From a virus, in UHGV virus genome UHGV-1359735: 41,735 nt of DNA; one strand, 5' to 3'. The notes under the pieces were generated by a model. That model was not told where the DNA came from. It saw only the letters and a program-made list of their open reading frames with translations, and made no database searches. Of this stretch, positions 3,458 through 21,674 are shown one piece after another. Every line of letters starts with the position of its first letter. The stretch's first letter is position 1. A program made the translations under genes and the position numbers.

Positions 3458-3691
3458 TTAACGTTCGTGGAACCAGAGGACCAGGTCGGATTTTGCGGAG
3501 ATCCACTTACGGGATTTGCAGGCTTTAAACAGTCCTTCTAACAGAGGTTTACGTGGAATTCTTCTACGACCAGTCAGGTGAACCTGAATGTAGTGGCTGG
3601 TCGTGCCGGCGTCACTTGCGAACTCTTCACGCTCTGCCGGAGAGAGGTCCAGCCAGCAGCGTTTGAAGTCAAATTTTTGCATATCGCTCAT
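3458..3691 (-). CDS. Cro/YdaS-like HTH regulator (first gene of rightward-equivalent early operon)
   Basis: 77 aa with HTH segment SDAGTTSHYIQVHLTGRRRIP; divergent from the repressor gene across an operator cluster. Confidence 0.55.
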   Translation of the reverse strand: MSDMQKFDFKRCWLDLSPAEREEFASDAGTTSHYIQVHLTGRRRIPRKPLLEGLFKACKSRKWISAKSDLVLWFHER

Positions 3692-3845: not shown

Positions 3846-4427
3846 ATGAAAAGCATCTACGACATACGACGCGACAACCTCAACGAGATAATCCGGAAGG
3901 ATTTCGATAACACGCAACTCCGGTTTGCCGAGAGATTCAAAAAATCAGCGAATCTCGTTAACAGGTGGAGCAAGGGGACAAAAAATATCGGCGCCAACGC
4001 GGCACGCGAGATCGAGTCGTTCGCCGGGAAAGGTCGTTTCTGGCTGGATATCGACCATCTGTCAGATACCCCGACGCTGCCGGAGATTATCGACCCGCAG
4101 GAATGGAGTGTGGAAAAGCAGGCAGCGTTTACCCTTGGTGTATGGATGGGACAGCATCCGGATCTGAACTCAGAGAAAAAGGTTTCGGAAGCGGCCGGTA
4201 TCGGCCAGGCGACCGTAAATCGCATCCTGAACTGCGAAGGTTCCACCAGCATTGGCGTACTGTCGGCTATCGCCAGCGCGTTCGGCCGCGATGCATATGA
4301 GCTGATCCTGCCGCCTGGTAATGCTGGTCTGATTGACTATGACCACCATGAATACGCCGGGCTGCCGCAGGAAGAGAAAAACAAGATCGCCGCCTTCATC
4401 AAGTTCATCGTCAGCCAGAACCAGTAA
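3846..4427 (+). CDS. Immunity repressor with two XRE-type HTH domains, no S24 peptidase domain
   Basis: 193 aa with two HTH-like segments (res ~20-60 and ~118-165). Divergent to the cro-like gene across the operator cluster. No SD before the ATG, so possibly leaderless like lambda cI. Confidence 0.7.
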   Translation: MKSIYDIRRDNLNEIIRKDFDNTQLRFAERFKKSANLVNRWSKGTKNIGANAAREIESFAGKGRFWLDIDHLSDTPTLPEIIDPQEWSVEKQAAFTLGVWMGQHPDLNSEKKVSEAAGIGQATVNRILNCEGSTSIGVLSAIASAFGRDAYELILPPGNAGLIDYDHHEYAGLPQEEKNKIAAFIKFIVSQNQ

Positions 4428-4482: not shown

Positions 4483-4634
4483 TTACCAAAATGGTAAACT
4501 TTTCCTCATCAAATCTATTGACACAACCATAAATTGATCAGATTATTACCTTAACGGTAACAACAGGGCGTTAAATTACCAGAAACCCACCATCGGGTGG
4601 ATTTCTCATACCCCTGATATTTACCAAATGGTAA
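4483..4634. promoter_or_regulatory. OL-like operator cluster plus PL-like promoter
   Basis: TTACCaaaatGGTAA 4483-4497; TTGACA(4518-4523)-17bp-GATTAT(4541-4546); TTACCttaacGGTAA 4546-4560 overlaps -10/+1; half site 4576-4580; TTACCaaatGGTAA 4621-4634; hairpin CCCACCatcGGGTGG at 4585-4600. Confidence 0.65.
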
Positions 4635-10891: not shown

Positions 10892-11374
10892 CTACCTGGT
10901 TAGTTCATCGTACTGTCTTTCGCAGACCCTTCCGGCTTCAGCTGCCCGGTCAGCGTATTCTGCCAGTTGCCGGTTTCGTTCAAGAGATTTTTCGAGCACG
11001 TCGGCAAGCAAAACTCCGGTGTCTGCGGCTGACGACCCAGCGCCGACAGTGGCGTTATACTGCCTGAGCTGCTCACGGATGGCAACGAGCTGCTGCTGCA
11101 GCCGGCCAGCGCGAGCGGCAGCATCAAGAGCATCATTGCGCGCCTGGTCGATCCTCTGCTGCGCTTCACGTTCATTGGTTGCTTTCTCCTGTTCGTCATG
11201 TTGACGGGCTTTCTCATCTTCCGCTTTGCGGTCTGCCTTCGCCTGCGCATACCCGGCGTCGTACTGTCTGTCACCGTGAATATTCCAGGCTACAATGCCG
11301 CCGGCCACCAGAGCAGCAAGCATCGACACGATAAGCAGCTGTTTCCAGTACGCTTTCACGAATGCCGTGATCAT
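10892..11374 (-). CDS. Rz: Rz-like i-spanin
   Basis: Start ATG 11374 (ATGA overlap with endolysin stop); N-terminal TM (LLIVSMLAALVAGGIVAW) then long charged coiled-coil; last lysis gene. Confidence 0.7.
   Translation of the reverse strand: MITAFVKAYWKQLLIVSMLAALVAGGIVAWNIHGDRQYDAGYAQAKADRKAEDEKARQHDEQEKATNEREAQQRIDQARNDALDAAARAGRLQQQLVAIREQLRQYNATVGAGSSAADTGVLLADVLEKSLERNRQLAEYADRAAEAGRVCERQYDELTR
10900..11136 (-). CDS. Rz1: Rz1-like o-spanin lipoprotein embedded in the +1 frame of Rz
   Basis: MMLLMLPLALAGC lipobox signal peptide; Pro/Ser-rich mature part; entirely nested inside Rz. Confidence 0.65.
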   Translation of the reverse strand: MMLLMLPLALAGCSSSSLPSVSSSGSITPLSALGRQPQTPEFCLPTCSKNLLNETGNWQNTLTGQLKPEGSAKDSTMN

Positions 11375-12000
11375 GATGCCAGTACCTTCTTGGCCGACAG
11401 GTAACGCACACGGCGATCGTCGATGCCATTCTGCCCGCCGTTGATGATCTGCGTGACGCGCATCAGGTCGTCGGTGTACTTCAGGCATCCATATTTCACG
11501 AAGTACCACGCCGCGCTCCGCGCTGCATACTCGTCCTGCGCCAGCAGCTCCGGATGCTTAACCAGATCCACCTTCAAGCCGTTGCCGCAGTCGCGATAGG
11601 TGTTCAGCCCGGTGATCTGGATAAGCCCGCGCCCGCGGTAAAACCAGCCGTCTGTCGGCCCGTTATTCCCCATGCGTTTGCTGTATACCAGATTGGCTAT
11701 GGCTCGCTGCCTCTCCAGTGGCAACGATGGTTCACCCTGCCGGCGCCCTAGGGAATTAGCCTGGCCCTGCGTCAGCCGCCCGGCACGGACGAAACCAGCC
11801 AGCCCCGCCACGCTGTAATTGAAGTTCTCAACGAGCTGGGTAAGGCCAGTGCTTTCATGCCCGGCCTGGGCAATAAACATCGCCTGATCCAACGGCTTGA
11901 TAATGCCAAACTGTTTCATGGCCGCCACGATGTGCGGATGCCAGCGTGTGGCCAGCGCCAGGCTAACGCCGGCTGCTTTCTGAAACTCGTTAATGTCCAT
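11371..12000 (-). CDS. Endolysin, glycoside hydrolase family 19 (chitinase-like lysozyme)
   Basis: GH19 catalytic motifs (AQAGHESTGL ... YRGRGLIQITG..NY); located between holin-like and spanin genes. Confidence 0.85.
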   Translation of the reverse strand: MDINEFQKAAGVSLALATRWHPHIVAAMKQFGIIKPLDQAMFIAQAGHESTGLTQLVENFNYSVAGLAGFVRAGRLTQGQANSLGRRQGEPSLPLERQRAIANLVYSKRMGNNGPTDGWFYRGRGLIQITGLNTYRDCGNGLKVDLVKHPELLAQDEYAARSAAWYFVKYGCLKYTDDLMRVTQIINGGQNGIDDRRVRYLSAKKVLAS

Positions 12001-18167: not shown

Positions 18168-18182
18168 TTACCATTAAGGTAA
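18168..18182. promoter_or_regulatory. Operator-like palindrome TTACCattaaGGTAA in the divergent tailspike / Ant-C-paralog region
   Basis: Perfect copy of the dispersed motif; a half-site lies at 18207-18211. Confidence 0.55.
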
Positions 18183-18256
18183 ATAAAAACCTTCTGGAAA
18201 ACCCTGTTACCTTTTGATATATGTATATATATACAGTATTTATCGGAGTAATCCTA

Positions 18257-18517
18257 ATGCCAGAGCGGTACCAGTATCCTGTCGACGAAGGTTTTGCGGA
18301 TCGTATTCACACCCCGGAAGGGGTCAGATCCCTGGTTGTAAAATCACAGCTGATGGAGTTGCTCAGGGAGATGGAGCGAGACGGCCACGATGTCAGCGGT
18401 GCGGCGGCGGAACTGGTGGCACTGGTTAACTATGTGACAAGCTCGCAGCTGTCGATGCGGGAGCTGCAAACACACCTGGATTTCTGCGCAATGCAGATTA
18501 GACAACATTTAAAGTAA
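18257..18517 (+). CDS. Small protein homologous to the C-terminal domain of the Ant antirepressor (86 aa)
   Basis: ATG 18257 after GGAG SD; about 50% identity to the C-terminal ~75 aa of the 20051..20740 product (IH.P.G.R.L..S.M.LLRE...DGHDVSGAAAE). Preceded by an operator and a LexA-like box. Confidence 0.5.
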   Translation: MPERYQYPVDEGFADRIHTPEGVRSLVVKSQLMELLREMERDGHDVSGAAAELVALVNYVTSSQLSMRELQTHLDFCAMQIRQHLK

Positions 18518-18582
18518 GTTATAAGCTACTCGTCTACATGCTATACTTATATGAAGACGAGTTGCTAATAAACGGTGGTAAA

Positions 18583-18738
18583 ATGAATGTGTTTTTAAAA
18601 AAAGAGTCTAATTCTTTAACTTCCACTGTAAAAATGCTAATAGTGGCAATTGTTACATATCAGATCGGGATAGGATGGGGGCTAATATGCATTGCTACTA
18701 TAAATGTGCTCCCATCCATAACAATAAAATTTAATTAA
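18583..18738 (+). CDS. Small membrane peptide (51 aa)
   Basis: ATG 18583 after GGTGG SD; one TM helix (MLIVAIVTYQIGIGWGLICIATI); 3' end overlaps the convergent 283-aa gene by 8 nt; AT-rich. Confidence 0.3.
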   Translation: MNVFLKKESNSLTSTVKMLIVAIVTYQIGIGWGLICIATINVLPSITIKFN

Positions 18739-19582
18739 GTTTTACACTCATTTGCCCAACATAATTAAACGGGTTTGATTTATCTATTCTTCTTAATGAC
18801 ATGGCAGAAGAAAAGTTCACAAAAGTACTAAATCCGTAGGTTGCTGAAGCTAAAATAGCACCTGTTTCTGGAAGACCTATTGATTTGGCGCCAAAATACG
18901 CTGCACCTGCATTTGTTACTATCTCAGGAATATTGAAGTTAAATTTTACTTCTGATAAGTTAAATTTTATACGGCTTTCACCATACAATCTAATAACATC
19001 TGCGCAAGCTTTATCTATCTCATTTATTGCCACCTTAAGTTCTAAGTCTCTGTTTTGCGAATTTAATACTCTTGTGTTAAGTTCATTAATTTTATTCATG
19101 AGGTTTTCTAGTTCCCCCTTTCTTTTAAGCCTGAACTCCAATATATCATGGATGTTTACACTTTCATCAGGCTCTGGAATTGCATTTATCAAAGTAAATA
19201 ACTCACCATTATCCGGAGCAACCTCATTGCTATTCTTAATCAATACTTTATCAGCCTCACTAGCAATAAAATTTATATCTTTTCGCGCAAGTGAATCAAT
19301 CATAAATTTCATATTTGCGTCATATAATAGCGTAGCAAAATCACCACTGCCATTGATACGTAACATTACCTCAGTAAATAACCCTTCCCTTTTAAGTTCT
19401 GGTATACCTGGGGTTTCGTCATTAGAGATATTAATTAAATTGTTGTTTGTTGTAATTATTTTATCCCAATAAAGAGCATTTATTAATAACTTCCTATAGT
19501 TTAAATTAGATTCTGCTATATGTATGCTATTATTATCTGCGTTAATAAACATATCAGGAAACATTAAAACATGATTTTCCAT
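18731..19582 (-). CDS. Hypothetical 283-aa protein, very AT-rich moron (candidate defense/exclusion gene)
   Basis: Long clean ORF with Asn/Ile/Lys-rich composition; GC about 30% versus the ~52% backbone; isolated between tailspike and ant. Confidence 0.5.
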   Translation of the reverse strand: MENHVLMFPDMFINADNNSIHIAESNLNYRKLLINALYWDKIITTNNNLINISNDETPGIPELKREGLFTEVMLRINGSGDFATLLYDANMKFMIDSLARKDINFIASEADKVLIKNSNEVAPDNGELFTLINAIPEPDESVNIHDILEFRLKRKGELENLMNKINELNTRVLNSQNRDLELKVAINEIDKACADVIRLYGESRIKFNLSEVKFNFNIPEIVTNAGAAYFGAKSIGLPETGAILASATYGFSTFVNFSSAMSLRRIDKSNPFNYVGQMSVKLN

Positions 19583-19768
19583 TTAATCACCCATAGTATG
19601 TGTAGTAATAAAAATAATTTATGTAACTTTATTGGTTAGAATCACATTGGTAAATATCAACACCAAAAAATATACTAGAACTATGTTTAGGATTGTTCTA
19701 TATGCACATAAAAAAAAGCGCAAAACAACTCATAAAGAGATTGATTTTACTTAATAAACAAAATAAGA

Positions 19769-19783
19769 TTACCAAAATGGTAA
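19769..19783. promoter_or_regulatory. Operator-like palindrome TTACCaaaatGGTAA plus promoter upstream of ant
   Basis: TTGATT(19741-19746)-17bp-TAAGAT(19764-19769) promoter directly abutting the perfect palindrome. Confidence 0.55.
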
Positions 19784-19874
19784 ATTTACAACCCATTTCC
19801 CTTGTGCCATAGTGATCAGGCATCGGCAAAATCCGGTGCCGGGATTGGCGTCCCGGATAACTAAACGGCGCACA

Positions 19875-19898
19875 ACACGCGCACTGCGTGTTTTTTTG
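19875..19898 (+). terminator. Intrinsic terminator in the ant leader
   Basis: ACACGC-gcact-GCGTGT stem-loop followed by TTTTTTT, about 100 nt downstream of the ant promoter/operator and ~150 nt before the ant start. Confidence 0.55.
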
Positions 19899-20050
19899 TG
19901 CACGCGCTCTGACGCACCTATCCAATGGTGGGCTGGGCGGGGGTCCGAAAGGACGCCGGTATCCGTTTAGGCCGGTACGCCAACTCCGTTCAGTTCACCA
20001 CCAGTAATTGGCGTTGCGGTGGTGATAACTCTACTAAGCGGGGTATCACA

Positions 20051-20740
20051 ATGAACACCAAACCTTCCATTTTCAATTTCGAATCAGACTCAGCTATTCG
20101 CGCCATTATGATCGATGGCAATCCTTGGTTTTTTGCATCCGATGTTTGCCGCGCGATTGGCATCGCAAACCATCGTGATGCAGTTCGCAAACTTGATGAT
20201 GACGAGAAGGGCGTCGGCTCAACCGACACCCTTGGTGGTGAGCAAGAATCAGTTATCATCTCCGAGTCTGGCCTCTACACTCTTATCCTCCGCTGCCGCG
20301 ATGCGGTGACGCCGGGCACCATCCCCTACCGCTTCCGCAAATGGGTAACCAGCGAGGTGCTGCCGCAGATCCGCAAGACTGGCCGCTACGTTCGGGAAGA
20401 ACTCTCCCAGGCTGATAAAGCCCGCATGCTGGCGCAGGAGATGACCAGCAGCATGTTGCCGGCGATCATGGATGCATTGCAGATCGAGCAGAAGCACTAC
20501 ACCTTCCCTCTTAACCGACGCTATCAGGATCACATCCATTCACCTGATGGCCTGCGTGAACTGGCGAAAAGCTCAATGGTGATGAAGCTGCTCCGCGAAC
20601 TCGATGCTGACGGGCATGATGTGTCCGGCGCCGCCGCAGAGGTCACAGCTATGCTCAGCTACATTGTTGGTATCGGCGCCGTACTGCGCGACATAGAGAC
20701 GCATGCTCAGTACGTGATGGCTAAAGCCAAGGGTTACTGA
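20051..20740 (+). CDS. ant: Antirepressor (BRO-N/Ant family)
   Basis: Starts MNTKPSIFNFESDSAIRAIMIDGNPWFFASDVCRAIG..., the BRO-N domain typical of Ant antirepressors; track ORF 19925..20740, probable start ATG 20051. Confidence 0.75.
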   Translation: MNTKPSIFNFESDSAIRAIMIDGNPWFFASDVCRAIGIANHRDAVRKLDDDEKGVGSTDTLGGEQESVIISESGLYTLILRCRDAVTPGTIPYRFRKWVTSEVLPQIRKTGRYVREELSQADKARMLAQEMTSSMLPAIMDALQIEQKHYTFPLNRRYQDHIHSPDGLRELAKSSMVMKLLRELDADGHDVSGAAAEVTAMLSYIVGIGAVLRDIETHAQYVMAKAKGY

Positions 20741-20803
20741 GGCTGCTGGCGCAGGGAAGCGCCTTTAAAATAATTCTTGACGGACTTCATGGGTGGCTTA
20801 AGA

Positions 20804-20818
20804 TTACCGTATTGGTAA
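20804..20818. promoter_or_regulatory. Operator-like palindrome TTACCgtattGGTAA upstream of moron operon
   Basis: Preceded by TTGACG ... TAAGAT promoter-like elements; TAAGATTACC junction identical to the ant promoter. Confidence 0.5.
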
Positions 20819-20869
20819 TTCAACCATGTGTTGAGTATCCGCTTGCATTAACGTTTGTTAGAGGTATGT

Positions 20870-21205
20870 ATGAGCAGAAGATATAGCAAAGAGCTGGCTT
20901 TAGAGTCAGGGAGCCCTTTGGGTATCGCTCCTCGCTCTGACTACTCCGGCTTTGTGAAAAGAGACTCATCAACCGGCAAGTTCCTCGAACAAGATATGCG
21001 GGTGGTCGGTGATGACTTACGTAGGTCCGCAACGACCATTTATAAAAAGTACATCATAAAAGATGGGAAAAGAGTTGATGCCCCTCAAGGAAAGATGTTT
21101 GCCGTAACTCTACATAAGGAAGGTCTTGATGCTGCCGAAACACCAAAATCAAGTTCCCCAAGATACGACAAATACGCCAGACTTTACTGGCAAACAAAGC
21201 GATAA
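20870..21205 (+). CDS. Hypothetical protein (111 aa)
   Basis: ATG 20870 after GAGG SD; first gene after the operator/promoter at 20777-20818. Confidence 0.4.
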   Translation: MSRRYSKELALESGSPLGIAPRSDYSGFVKRDSSTGKFLEQDMRVVGDDLRRSATTIYKKYIIKDGKRVDAPQGKMFAVTLHKEGLDAAETPKSSSPRYDKYARLYWQTKR

Positions 21206-21674
21206 CCCCGAATTTGAAGAAGTCGAGGAAGATCTAAGTAAAGAGATCATTGAACATCCGGATGCTTTTTCGCGTGTGCTCGACAGGCCTGAAATTCAAG
21301 AAATCGTTGTTGCTCACCACGCATTTCAAGGCCCGCTACCTCCTCCATATCTTTTACGTGGGTATCAGGAAATCTTACCTGATGCCCCCGAGCGTATCTT
21401 TCAACTAACGGAGAGAGAATTTGCTCACAGGCATAAGATGGAGGAAAAAGCACTTGATGGCGCCATCAACAGGGATAAAAGAGGACAGCACTACGGTCTA
21501 GGCGCTACAATCTTTACCGTCGGTTGTGCCACCGTCTTAGGCCTGACCGGGCATGAAGTGTTGGCAGGAACGGTCATCGGCATAGTAGTTGCAGTAGCTT
21601 GTATTTTTGTTCTCAGGCAAAAACCAATCATCAAAAAGAAGCCAGAGAATAACGAAAAACCTGATGAAGAATAG
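21126..21674 (+). CDS. DUF2335-like protein with two C-terminal TM helices
   Basis: Acidic N-terminus, conserved central region (PPPYLLRGYQEILPDAPERIF..E..HRHKME), hydrophobic C-terminus; start uncertain because it overlaps the upstream ORF. Confidence 0.45.
   Translation: MMLPKHQNQVPQDTTNTPDFTGKQSDNPEFEEVEEDLSKEIIEHPDAFSRVLDRPEIQEIVVAHHAFQGPLPPPYLLRGYQEILPDAPERIFQLTEREFAHRHKMEEKALDGAINRDKRGQHYGLGATIFTVGCATVLGLTGHEVLAGTVIGIVVAVACIFVLRQKPIIKKKPENNEKPDEE

Follow-up and report, generated by a model that had tools for sequence, protein, structure and literature searches.

A predicted IsrK-C4 RNA cassette in front of a Bro-N antirepressor gene in an epsilon15-like prophage

The UHGV virus genome UHGV-1359735 (41,735 nucleotides; this whole stretch is referred to as the window) contains the gene ant, which codes for an antirepressor-type protein of the Bro-N family. 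The 41.7-kb window is an epsilon15-like Klebsiella/Enterobacteriaceae prophage. The region before ant is an ordinary representative of a phage RNA switch known from P1 and from Gifsy-1 of Salmonella, in which the small RNA IsrK is followed by the antisense RNA C4, and not a novel attenuator. We consider it likely that this is an RNA immunity cassette of the type found at immI of phage P1, placed before a Bro-N antirepressor gene in an epsilon15-like prophage. The case is carried by the identity and the positions of the elements, by the conservation of a promoter, by a three-way covariation of short pairing sites and by the absence of an internal promoter for ant. Elements of this kind, with their parts and their general logic, have been described before, and the present copy is one ordinary example. 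The features that define IsrK and C4 can be recognized from the sequence; those of a full P1 immI operon cannot, as icd is missing and Ant is unrelated. The cassette was found in 208 phage records and in 105 complete E. coli genomes. In the RefSeq record of a 95%-identical E. coli prophage, RNA-gene annotation is absent at this locus.

IsrK, C4 and their pairing sites

An initial annotation, made from the sequence alone, placed a structured leader of ~100 nucleotides (nt) upstream of ant, which ends in a strong terminator and might be released as a discrete small RNA of ~110 nt. The discrete, terminated RNA is supported, as the region matches the Rfam family isrK (RF01394) over the complete model (19820-19896, model positions 1-77 of 77; 80.2 bits against a cut-off of 50). 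Its extent had to be corrected: it starts at ~19820 and comprises ~78 nt. The two 5' hairpins and the Rho-independent terminator of IsrK were recovered by folding and by a terminator scan. The terminator is real; its hairpin (19874-92) and the T7 run (19891-97) are part of the isrK match, and the pairing of its stem is conserved. In the IsrK consensus structure from 71 sequences, four pairs keep pairing through double-sided changes; in the terminator stem, such changes are seen at two pairs. Neither a tRNA nor a tmRNA was found in the structured region.

The start codon of ant had been placed at 20051, where an ATG is indeed read, and the same start is annotated in the 95%-identical E. coli prophage. 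The ~150 nt between the terminator and this codon had been taken as plain leader. They hold, however, a complete C4 antisense RNA. The Rfam family C4 (RF01695) matches 19921-20005 with 66.4 bits (cut-off 45; model positions 1-87 of 87). The fold has a minimum free energy of -42 kcal/mol (z = -3.85), and its long closing stem encloses two hairpins. Mature C4 probably extends from ~19927 to 20002, judged by alignment to the annotated 77-nt C4 of P1. The G that follows the AU at 19925-26 and the 3' sequence CACCACCA align with the ends of P1 C4, from which excision by RNase P is predicted. The C4 match ends at 20005 and the ant gene begins 46 nt further on; the interval contains no separate open reading frame (ORF).

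C4 carries two short elements, a' in a single-stranded joint and b' in the loop of its second inner hairpin, which are complementary to sites on both sides. The upstream sites (a1, b1) are located in IsrK and the downstream sites (a2, b2) in the ant leader (Table 1). These element names were taken from the annotated P1 GenBank record. Pairing of a' with a2 involves all seven positions, and b' forms eight pairs with b2, one of them a G.U pair (-12.2 kcal/mol). The Shine-Dalgarno sequence GGGG, which b2 overlaps, is 7 nt before the ant ATG. The calculated duplex energies of the C4 core are nearly the same on the two sides, with -30.5 kcal/mol for the a1-b1 region of IsrK and -29.8 kcal/mol for the ant leader. 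Local duplex energies were chosen because co-folding cannot model loop-loop contacts without opening C4.

Related loci were collected by scanning IMG/VR with the IsrK core, which resulted in 120 loci (L001-L120). Covariation was analyzed on 63 distinct combinations of pairing elements; overall, this represents ~100 related phage loci. The elements a1, a' and a2 match exactly in 62 of the 63 distinct loci and fall into three classes (CGU/ACG, UCU/AGA and AAC/GUU). Of the b' loops, 42 different ones occur among the 63. As the b sites vary in position and would not be aligned by MAFFT, each b' loop was compared with its own locus and with the other loci by the same algorithm. Between the b' loop and the IsrK linker, the median length of the longest Watson-Crick run is 8 nt within the same locus versus 4 nt for other loci. 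For the downstream leader, the corresponding values are 9 nt versus 4 nt. The 3' end of b2 is at a median distance of 9 nt from the start codon, and in 51 of 54 loci, b2 is directly next to a Shine-Dalgarno core or overlaps it.

Between loci, there is reassortment of the promoter/operator regions, of the a classes and of the b loops. One locus (L089) has the upstream region of the window together with another a/b class. Another (L082, ~11150-11381, minus strand) is a natural chimera. Its C4, its a2/b2 and the start of its downstream gene are identical to the window, and its IsrK has the a1 and b1 of another class (UUGGUCU and CUACAAAGG). The junction is in the terminator loop, so that the terminator stem consists of two halves that do not match any more. 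In none of the other 62 distinct loci do the a sites disagree.

Table 1. Features of the ant locus and of the presumed repressor region in the window
Feature	Position	Strand	Remarks
P_up, promoter-like site of the initial annotation	19741..19769	+	-35 TTGATT 19741-46, 17-nt spacer, -10 TAAGAT 19764-69; function predicted
operator TTACCAAAATGGTAA	19769..19783	none	perfect palindrome, TTACC-N5-GGTAA; -51 to -37 from IsrK start
IsrK promoter	19785..19813	+	-35 TTTACA 19785-90, 17-nt spacer, TG-extended -10 CATAGT 19808-13; start ~19820
IsrK small RNA	19820..19897	+	~78 nt; hairpin 1, hairpin 2, intrinsic terminator; 5' part equivalent to P1 'c4-a1b1'
a1 UUGGCGU	19845..19851	+	loop of IsrK hairpin 2; complementary to C4 a'
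b1 CUAAACGG	19861..19868	+	linker before terminator; perfectly complementary to C4 b'
intrinsic terminator of IsrK	19874..19897	+	GC-rich stem 19874-92, U7 19891-97; hairpin -8.8 kcal/mol
C4 antisense RNA	19921..20005	+	Rfam C4 full model; STnc1160 / 'orf45' region of Gifsy-1
b' CCGUUUAG	19963..19970	+	loop of second inner hairpin of C4
a' ACGCCAA	19977..19983	+	single-stranded joint of C4
a2 UUGGCGU	20008..20014	+	ant leader; same sequence as a1
b2 CUAAGCGG	20034..20043	+	b2 20034-41, overlaps ant Shine-Dalgarno GGGG 20040-43
ant	20051..20740	+	229-aa Bro-N antirepressor-type protein; Pfam Bro-N E = 1.4e-19; ATG 20051-53
exact operator copies	1439, 1501, 3761, 3778, 4483, 4546, 18168, 19769, 20804, 37756, 40907
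candidate prophage repressor, HTH_3	3846..4427	+	Pfam HTH_3 E = 1.6e-08; likely input of the module; predicted assignment
small cro-like ORF	3458-3691		divergent from HTH_3 gene

Promoters, operator and terminator read-through

The initial annotation described one promoter, TTGATT-17-TAAGAT, fused to an operator at 19769-19783, and these strings are found there. It is, however, not the only visible promoter. A better one (TTTACA-17-CATAGT, 19785-19813; 9/12 match plus TG extension) is located between the operator and IsrK. In related phage contigs, this IsrK promoter, which is of the sigma-70 type, is kept in all 79 distinct upstream sequences. In each of the 79, the -10 hexamer has an invariant A2 and T6 and is exactly 6 nt before position +1, with the -35 hexamer 17 nt further upstream, and the surroundings vary. 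The transcription start in Gifsy-1, a prophage with a related locus (see below), is the first base of the Rfam isrK model according to the published numbering, and this base aligns to position 19820 of the window. In that numbering, the first AUG of 'orf45' is A107, and G28, G31, C18, C159, C162 and G173 fit the bases (Hershko-Shalev et al. 2016, PMC4825925).

The promoter described initially (P_up) is an 8/12 match, and such matches occur at ~3.3 per kb on the plus strand. It is probably a real promoter, because the fusion of its -10 hexamer with the operator is recurrent. The -10 and the operator share one T, with which the former ends and the latter begins, and the same fusion is found at 4546 (TTGACA-17-GATTAT) and 20804 (TTGACG-16-TAAGAT). 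Several diverged relatives also have a TTGAxx sequence, a spacer of 17 or 18 nt and a -10-like hexamer that is joined to the operator. As the operator begins at the last base of the -10 and covers the -10/+1 region of P_up, this promoter is probably under repressor control. P_up is positioned at the edge of an AT-rich island (see below).

The operator itself is genuine. The palindrome TTACC-N5-GGTAA has 11 exact copies in the window, with 0.04 expected from the base composition. When up to two mismatches are allowed, there are 43 matches, compared to a mean of 11.9 upon shuffling. Two of the exact copies (3761 and 3778) are in the divergent intergenic region between an HTH_3 gene and a cro-like gene, and two others (4483 and 4546) are just downstream of the HTH_3 gene (3846-4427). 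The prophage repressor, for which the HTH_3 protein is the candidate, thus very likely has its operator in this palindrome. With 11 copies scattered over the prophage, the repressor seems to have a dispersed regulon, which recalls the C1 operators of P1. At the ant locus, the position of the operator relative to the -35 of the IsrK promoter is kept in 37 distinct upstream variants, and the operator seems to be sandwiched between two tandem promoters.

Several operator copies are joined to a promoter-like site through its -10. The promoter/operator design seen before ant is repeated at 20777-20818 (TTGACG-16-TAAGAT followed by TTACCGTATTGGTAA). It is directly after the ant stop codon and before the ORFs 20855-21205 and 21126-21674, the latter coding for a DUF2335 membrane protein.

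According to the initial annotation, transcripts would stop before ant unless they pass the terminator, and an additional promoter between 19900 and 20050 would have spoken against this. On the plus strand, no promoter-like site with at least 8/12 matches is found in that interval, and none begins within 19805-20060. The claim thus stands, and ant expression would depend on read-through of the IsrK terminator, as is needed in the Gifsy-1 homologue (PMC4825925).

Known relatives, mechanism and alternatives

The immI region of P1/P7 (Op51, P51a/P51b, a1 b1, c4, a2 b2, icd, ant1/2) is the closest model for the proposed function. The P1 record annotates Op51, P51a/P51b, a1, b1, C4, a2, b2 and icd-ant in the order of the window: repressor operator (predicted in the window), tandem promoters (promoter-like sites in the window), a1/b1 hairpins, C4 and a2/b2 follow each other on one strand, with b2 on the Shine-Dalgarno sequence of the next gene. 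The three families isrK, C4 and c4-a1b1, the last of which is just under its cut-off in the window, are found in P1 and in Gifsy-1. The -10 of P51b (TATAGT) is followed, after 6 nt, by the G that opens hairpin 1, as in the IsrK promoter, and this geometry is also shared with PisrK of Gifsy-1. There are several differences. The window lacks icd, so that b2 is directly on the ant ribosome site; its Ant is a Bro-N protein and unrelated to P1 Ant1 (BLASTP E = 1.4); its operator is a 15-bp palindrome between two promoters, whereas P1 has an asymmetric C1 site upstream of both; and its host is an integrated epsilon15-like podovirus, whereas P1 is a plasmid prophage. The isrK model also matches P1 itself (L122, 231-312) with a score under the threshold (35.1 bits, E = 7e-6), and this match includes a terminator-like hairpin and a U-run between b1 and c4. 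The a1/b1 region of P1 is thus an IsrK homologue with a possible terminator, which is not annotated in the record.

The second close relative is isrK-orf45(STnc1160)-anrP from Salmonella Gifsy-1 (Hershko-Shalev et al. 2016, PMC4825925). It has the same Rfam families in the same order, the same promoter geometry and +1, and read-through of the terminator feeds an antirepressor gene there as well. In Gifsy-1, the ORF that starts with the AUG inside C4 extends as far as the anrP start (AUGA), while it is fused in frame to ant in the window. The b specificity differs (CGGUGAU/AUCACCG versus CCGUUUAG/CUAAACGG in the window), and AnrP is unrelated to Ant of the window (E = 26). No TTACC-N5-GGTAA operator was found in the Gifsy-1 upstream region. 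As Ant has no protein homology to P1 Ant1 or AnrP, the likeness is confined to the RNA cassette.

Two other phage systems are more distant. The immI region of P22 (Pant, Mnt/Arc operators, sar RNA) also combines an operator and an RNA layer at an antirepressor gene, which is near the tailspike gene, but sar is transcribed from the opposite strand. The regulator RNA of the window is encoded on the same strand and would act via short loop complementarity. In P4 immunity (seqA, CI RNA with seqB, seqC), an RNA processed from the leader pairs with sites upstream and downstream of itself. The output is, however, premature termination, which protects replication genes, and not the control of an antirepressor. 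IsrK is considered a structural homologue of seqA by the Gifsy-1 authors (PMC4825925).

In the mechanism that we propose, transcription would begin at the conserved IsrK promoter (~19820), with a second start probably at P_up, which is joined by its -10 to the operator of the prophage repressor. The intrinsic terminator would stop most transcripts, yielding the ~78-nt IsrK, and a fraction would read through, carrying C4 (19921-20005) and ant. C4 would probably be excised from the read-through transcript, as in P1 and P4, and its a' and b' would pair with a2 (20008-14) and b2 (20034-41). As b2 overlaps the ant Shine-Dalgarno sequence, this pairing would leave Ant untranslated; a translational block would be the output. 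IsrK carries the same sites (a1, b1) and could therefore occupy C4, either in cis within the long transcript or as free RNA. A high IsrK:C4 ratio would lift the block by competition, so that Ant is made. Ant would then inactivate a repressor, and the prophage repressor is predicted to control the promoters. A second control layer on the antirepressor, as suggested initially, is supported, but it is of another kind: a P1-type same-strand C4, with targets in IsrK and at the ant Shine-Dalgarno sequence, and neither an attenuator nor a sar-like RNA.

Several experimental results from Gifsy-1 bear on this mechanism. Read-through of the IsrK terminator feeds anrP, and anrP transcription amounts to 280 Miller units with PisrK and to 3 without it (PMC4825925, Table 1A). 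The a1:a' pairing was tested by mutation (pairs G28-C162 and G31-C159; PMC4825925, Table 1D). When IsrK is supplied in trans, anrP translation is up 139-fold (PMC4825925). The a' mutants C159U and C162U de-repress 100-200-fold, and compensating changes in a1 fail to restore repression (PMC4825925), which fits a need for a':a2 pairing.

Some observations weigh against the proposed mechanism. The window has the G.U pair in b2, and its match to the Rfam family c4-a1b1 (RF03163; 19807-19859, E = 3.9e-10) reaches 44.9 bits, which is 1.8 bits under the cut-off of 46.7. Little or no net gain resulted from co-folding complete C4 with either IsrK or the ant leader; for the ant leader, simple co-folding gave no net gain, and loop-loop contacts must be assumed. 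In Gifsy-1, mutations of a1 in cis lead to de-repression instead of tighter repression (93 and 218 versus 4 units; PMC4825925); a1/b1 would therefore be more than a decoy and also help to form the inactive state. Constitutive STnc1160, which corresponds to C4, failed to counteract the toxicity of IsrK (PMC4825925). Finally, the published Gifsy-1 model invokes translation of an upstream ORF and not C4 at the anrP ribosome site (PMC4825925).

Taken literally, that published model would apply to the window as follows. In the inactive fold, the middle of IsrK pairs with 'orf45'; free IsrK opens the AUG at 19925, and translation runs from there into ant. This is possible but, in our opinion, rather doubtful. 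The AUG at 19925 is the one named the orf45 start in the Gifsy-1 paper, and it is in frame with ant without a stop codon, so that a fused product would have 271 amino acids (aa). A full-length fold of the window pairs a1:a' and b1:b' in cis (z = -5.0), which fits the mechanism proposed above as well and agrees with 'structure A' of the Gifsy-1 paper, and the model is backed by Gifsy-1 genetics and 30S protection data (PMC4825925). However, the AUG has no upstream Shine-Dalgarno sequence (CACCUAUCCAAUG), the second AUG of Gifsy-1 is missing in the window, and ant has its own Shine-Dalgarno sequence, which is overlapped by b2. The AUG is conserved as part of the C4 5' end (AUGGUGG), and it coincides with the site where C4 of P1 is cut from its precursor, as mature P1 C4 begins at the G of that AUG by alignment. 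The reading frame that follows is not conserved: among 71 distinct loci, it is fused to the downstream gene in 32, stops after ~14-17 codons inside C4 in 26 and abuts the next start in 3.

A P4-type output, in which pairing of C4 leads mainly to premature termination (at the IsrK terminator, or Rho-dependent inside ant) and less to a ribosome block, is unlikely. It is suggested by b1 being only 5 nt ahead of the terminator stem. The Gifsy-1 authors consider not only IsrK as related to P4 seqA but also STnc1160 as akin to CI RNA, and IsrK in trans raised anrP transcription 8-fold (PMC4825925). This is, however, far exceeded by the 139-fold effect on translation (PMC4825925). The position of b2 on the Shine-Dalgarno sequence in nearly all loci (51/54) points to ribosome occlusion. 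Moreover, Biere et al. are said to have reported in 1992 that termination follows from blocked translation in P1, which counts against termination as the primary output.

The initial annotation had favored an attenuator, overcome by an antiterminator structure or factor, or an antisense RNA like sar of P22. Both are very improbable, even though a strong terminator is present between the promoters and ant with no promoter downstream of it. When the 3' arm of the terminator was blocked, the best alternative was only a 4-bp hairpin (-24.9 versus -27.9 kcal/mol), so that there is no competing antiterminator helix, and there is no leader peptide. For a sar-type RNA, there is no minus-strand promoter-like site that faces the ant leader within 19600-20800. 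In addition, the element belongs to two described RNA families, which have a different known logic. It is hardly credible that IsrK is a small RNA gene that stands alone without relation to ant, with ant expression independent of it: IsrK does have its own promoter and terminator, but no promoter is found between the terminator and ant, IsrK covaries with C4 and the leader, and deletion of PisrK abolishes anrP transcription in Gifsy-1 (PMC4825925).

Gene context, cargo and implications

Upstream of the cassette, an AT-rich island extends from 18500 to 19800 (25-35% GC compared to 55-60% in the flanks). It contains a DUF6236 gene (18731-19582, minus strand), which is also present in the 95%-identical E. 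coli prophage. Adjacent to the island, an ORF (18221-18517, 98 aa) resembles the C-terminal portion of Ant (43% identity over 72 aa, E = 3e-23), and a copy of the operator is found upstream of it at 18168. This ORF either is what is left of a second antirepressor gene or codes for the C-terminal domain on its own. With its DUF6236 gene, the AT-rich island resembles a moron that was inserted between this Ant-like sequence and the IsrK module.

The IsrK-C4 cassette is attached to unrelated cargo. Among 78 distinct downstream proteins, 27 belong to Bro-N, 12 to Rha, 6 to ORF6N and 1 to the Derepression family. The other 32 are without a Pfam match, and many of these have only 62-87 aa.

It is tempting to speculate that the cassette is a portable ratio sensor, an idea that we regard as tentative and that may well prove wrong. 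The IsrK terminator would set the ratio of IsrK, as a target mimic, to the immunity RNA C4, and the prophage repressor, with its binding site at -44 of the IsrK promoter and over the -10 of P_up, would shift it upon de-repression. The a/b specificities (at least three a classes and 42 b loops among ~100 loci) might then serve as a heteroimmunity code. The IsrK of one phage could de-repress the antirepressor of any co-resident prophage of the same class, and chimeras of the L082 type would rewire such cross-talk.

For genome annotation, the 230 nt before the Bro-N antirepressor gene in this prophage family should be read as IsrK, C4 and their target sites; neither an untranslated leader nor a small ORF is the right label. 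In the same way, the C4 gene is what has been named 'orf45' in Gifsy-1, and conservation does not extend to its reading frame. Together with b2 being on the ribosome site in nearly all loci, this argues for the P1 mechanism as the general one, and the comparative data thus sharpen the published Gifsy-1 model.

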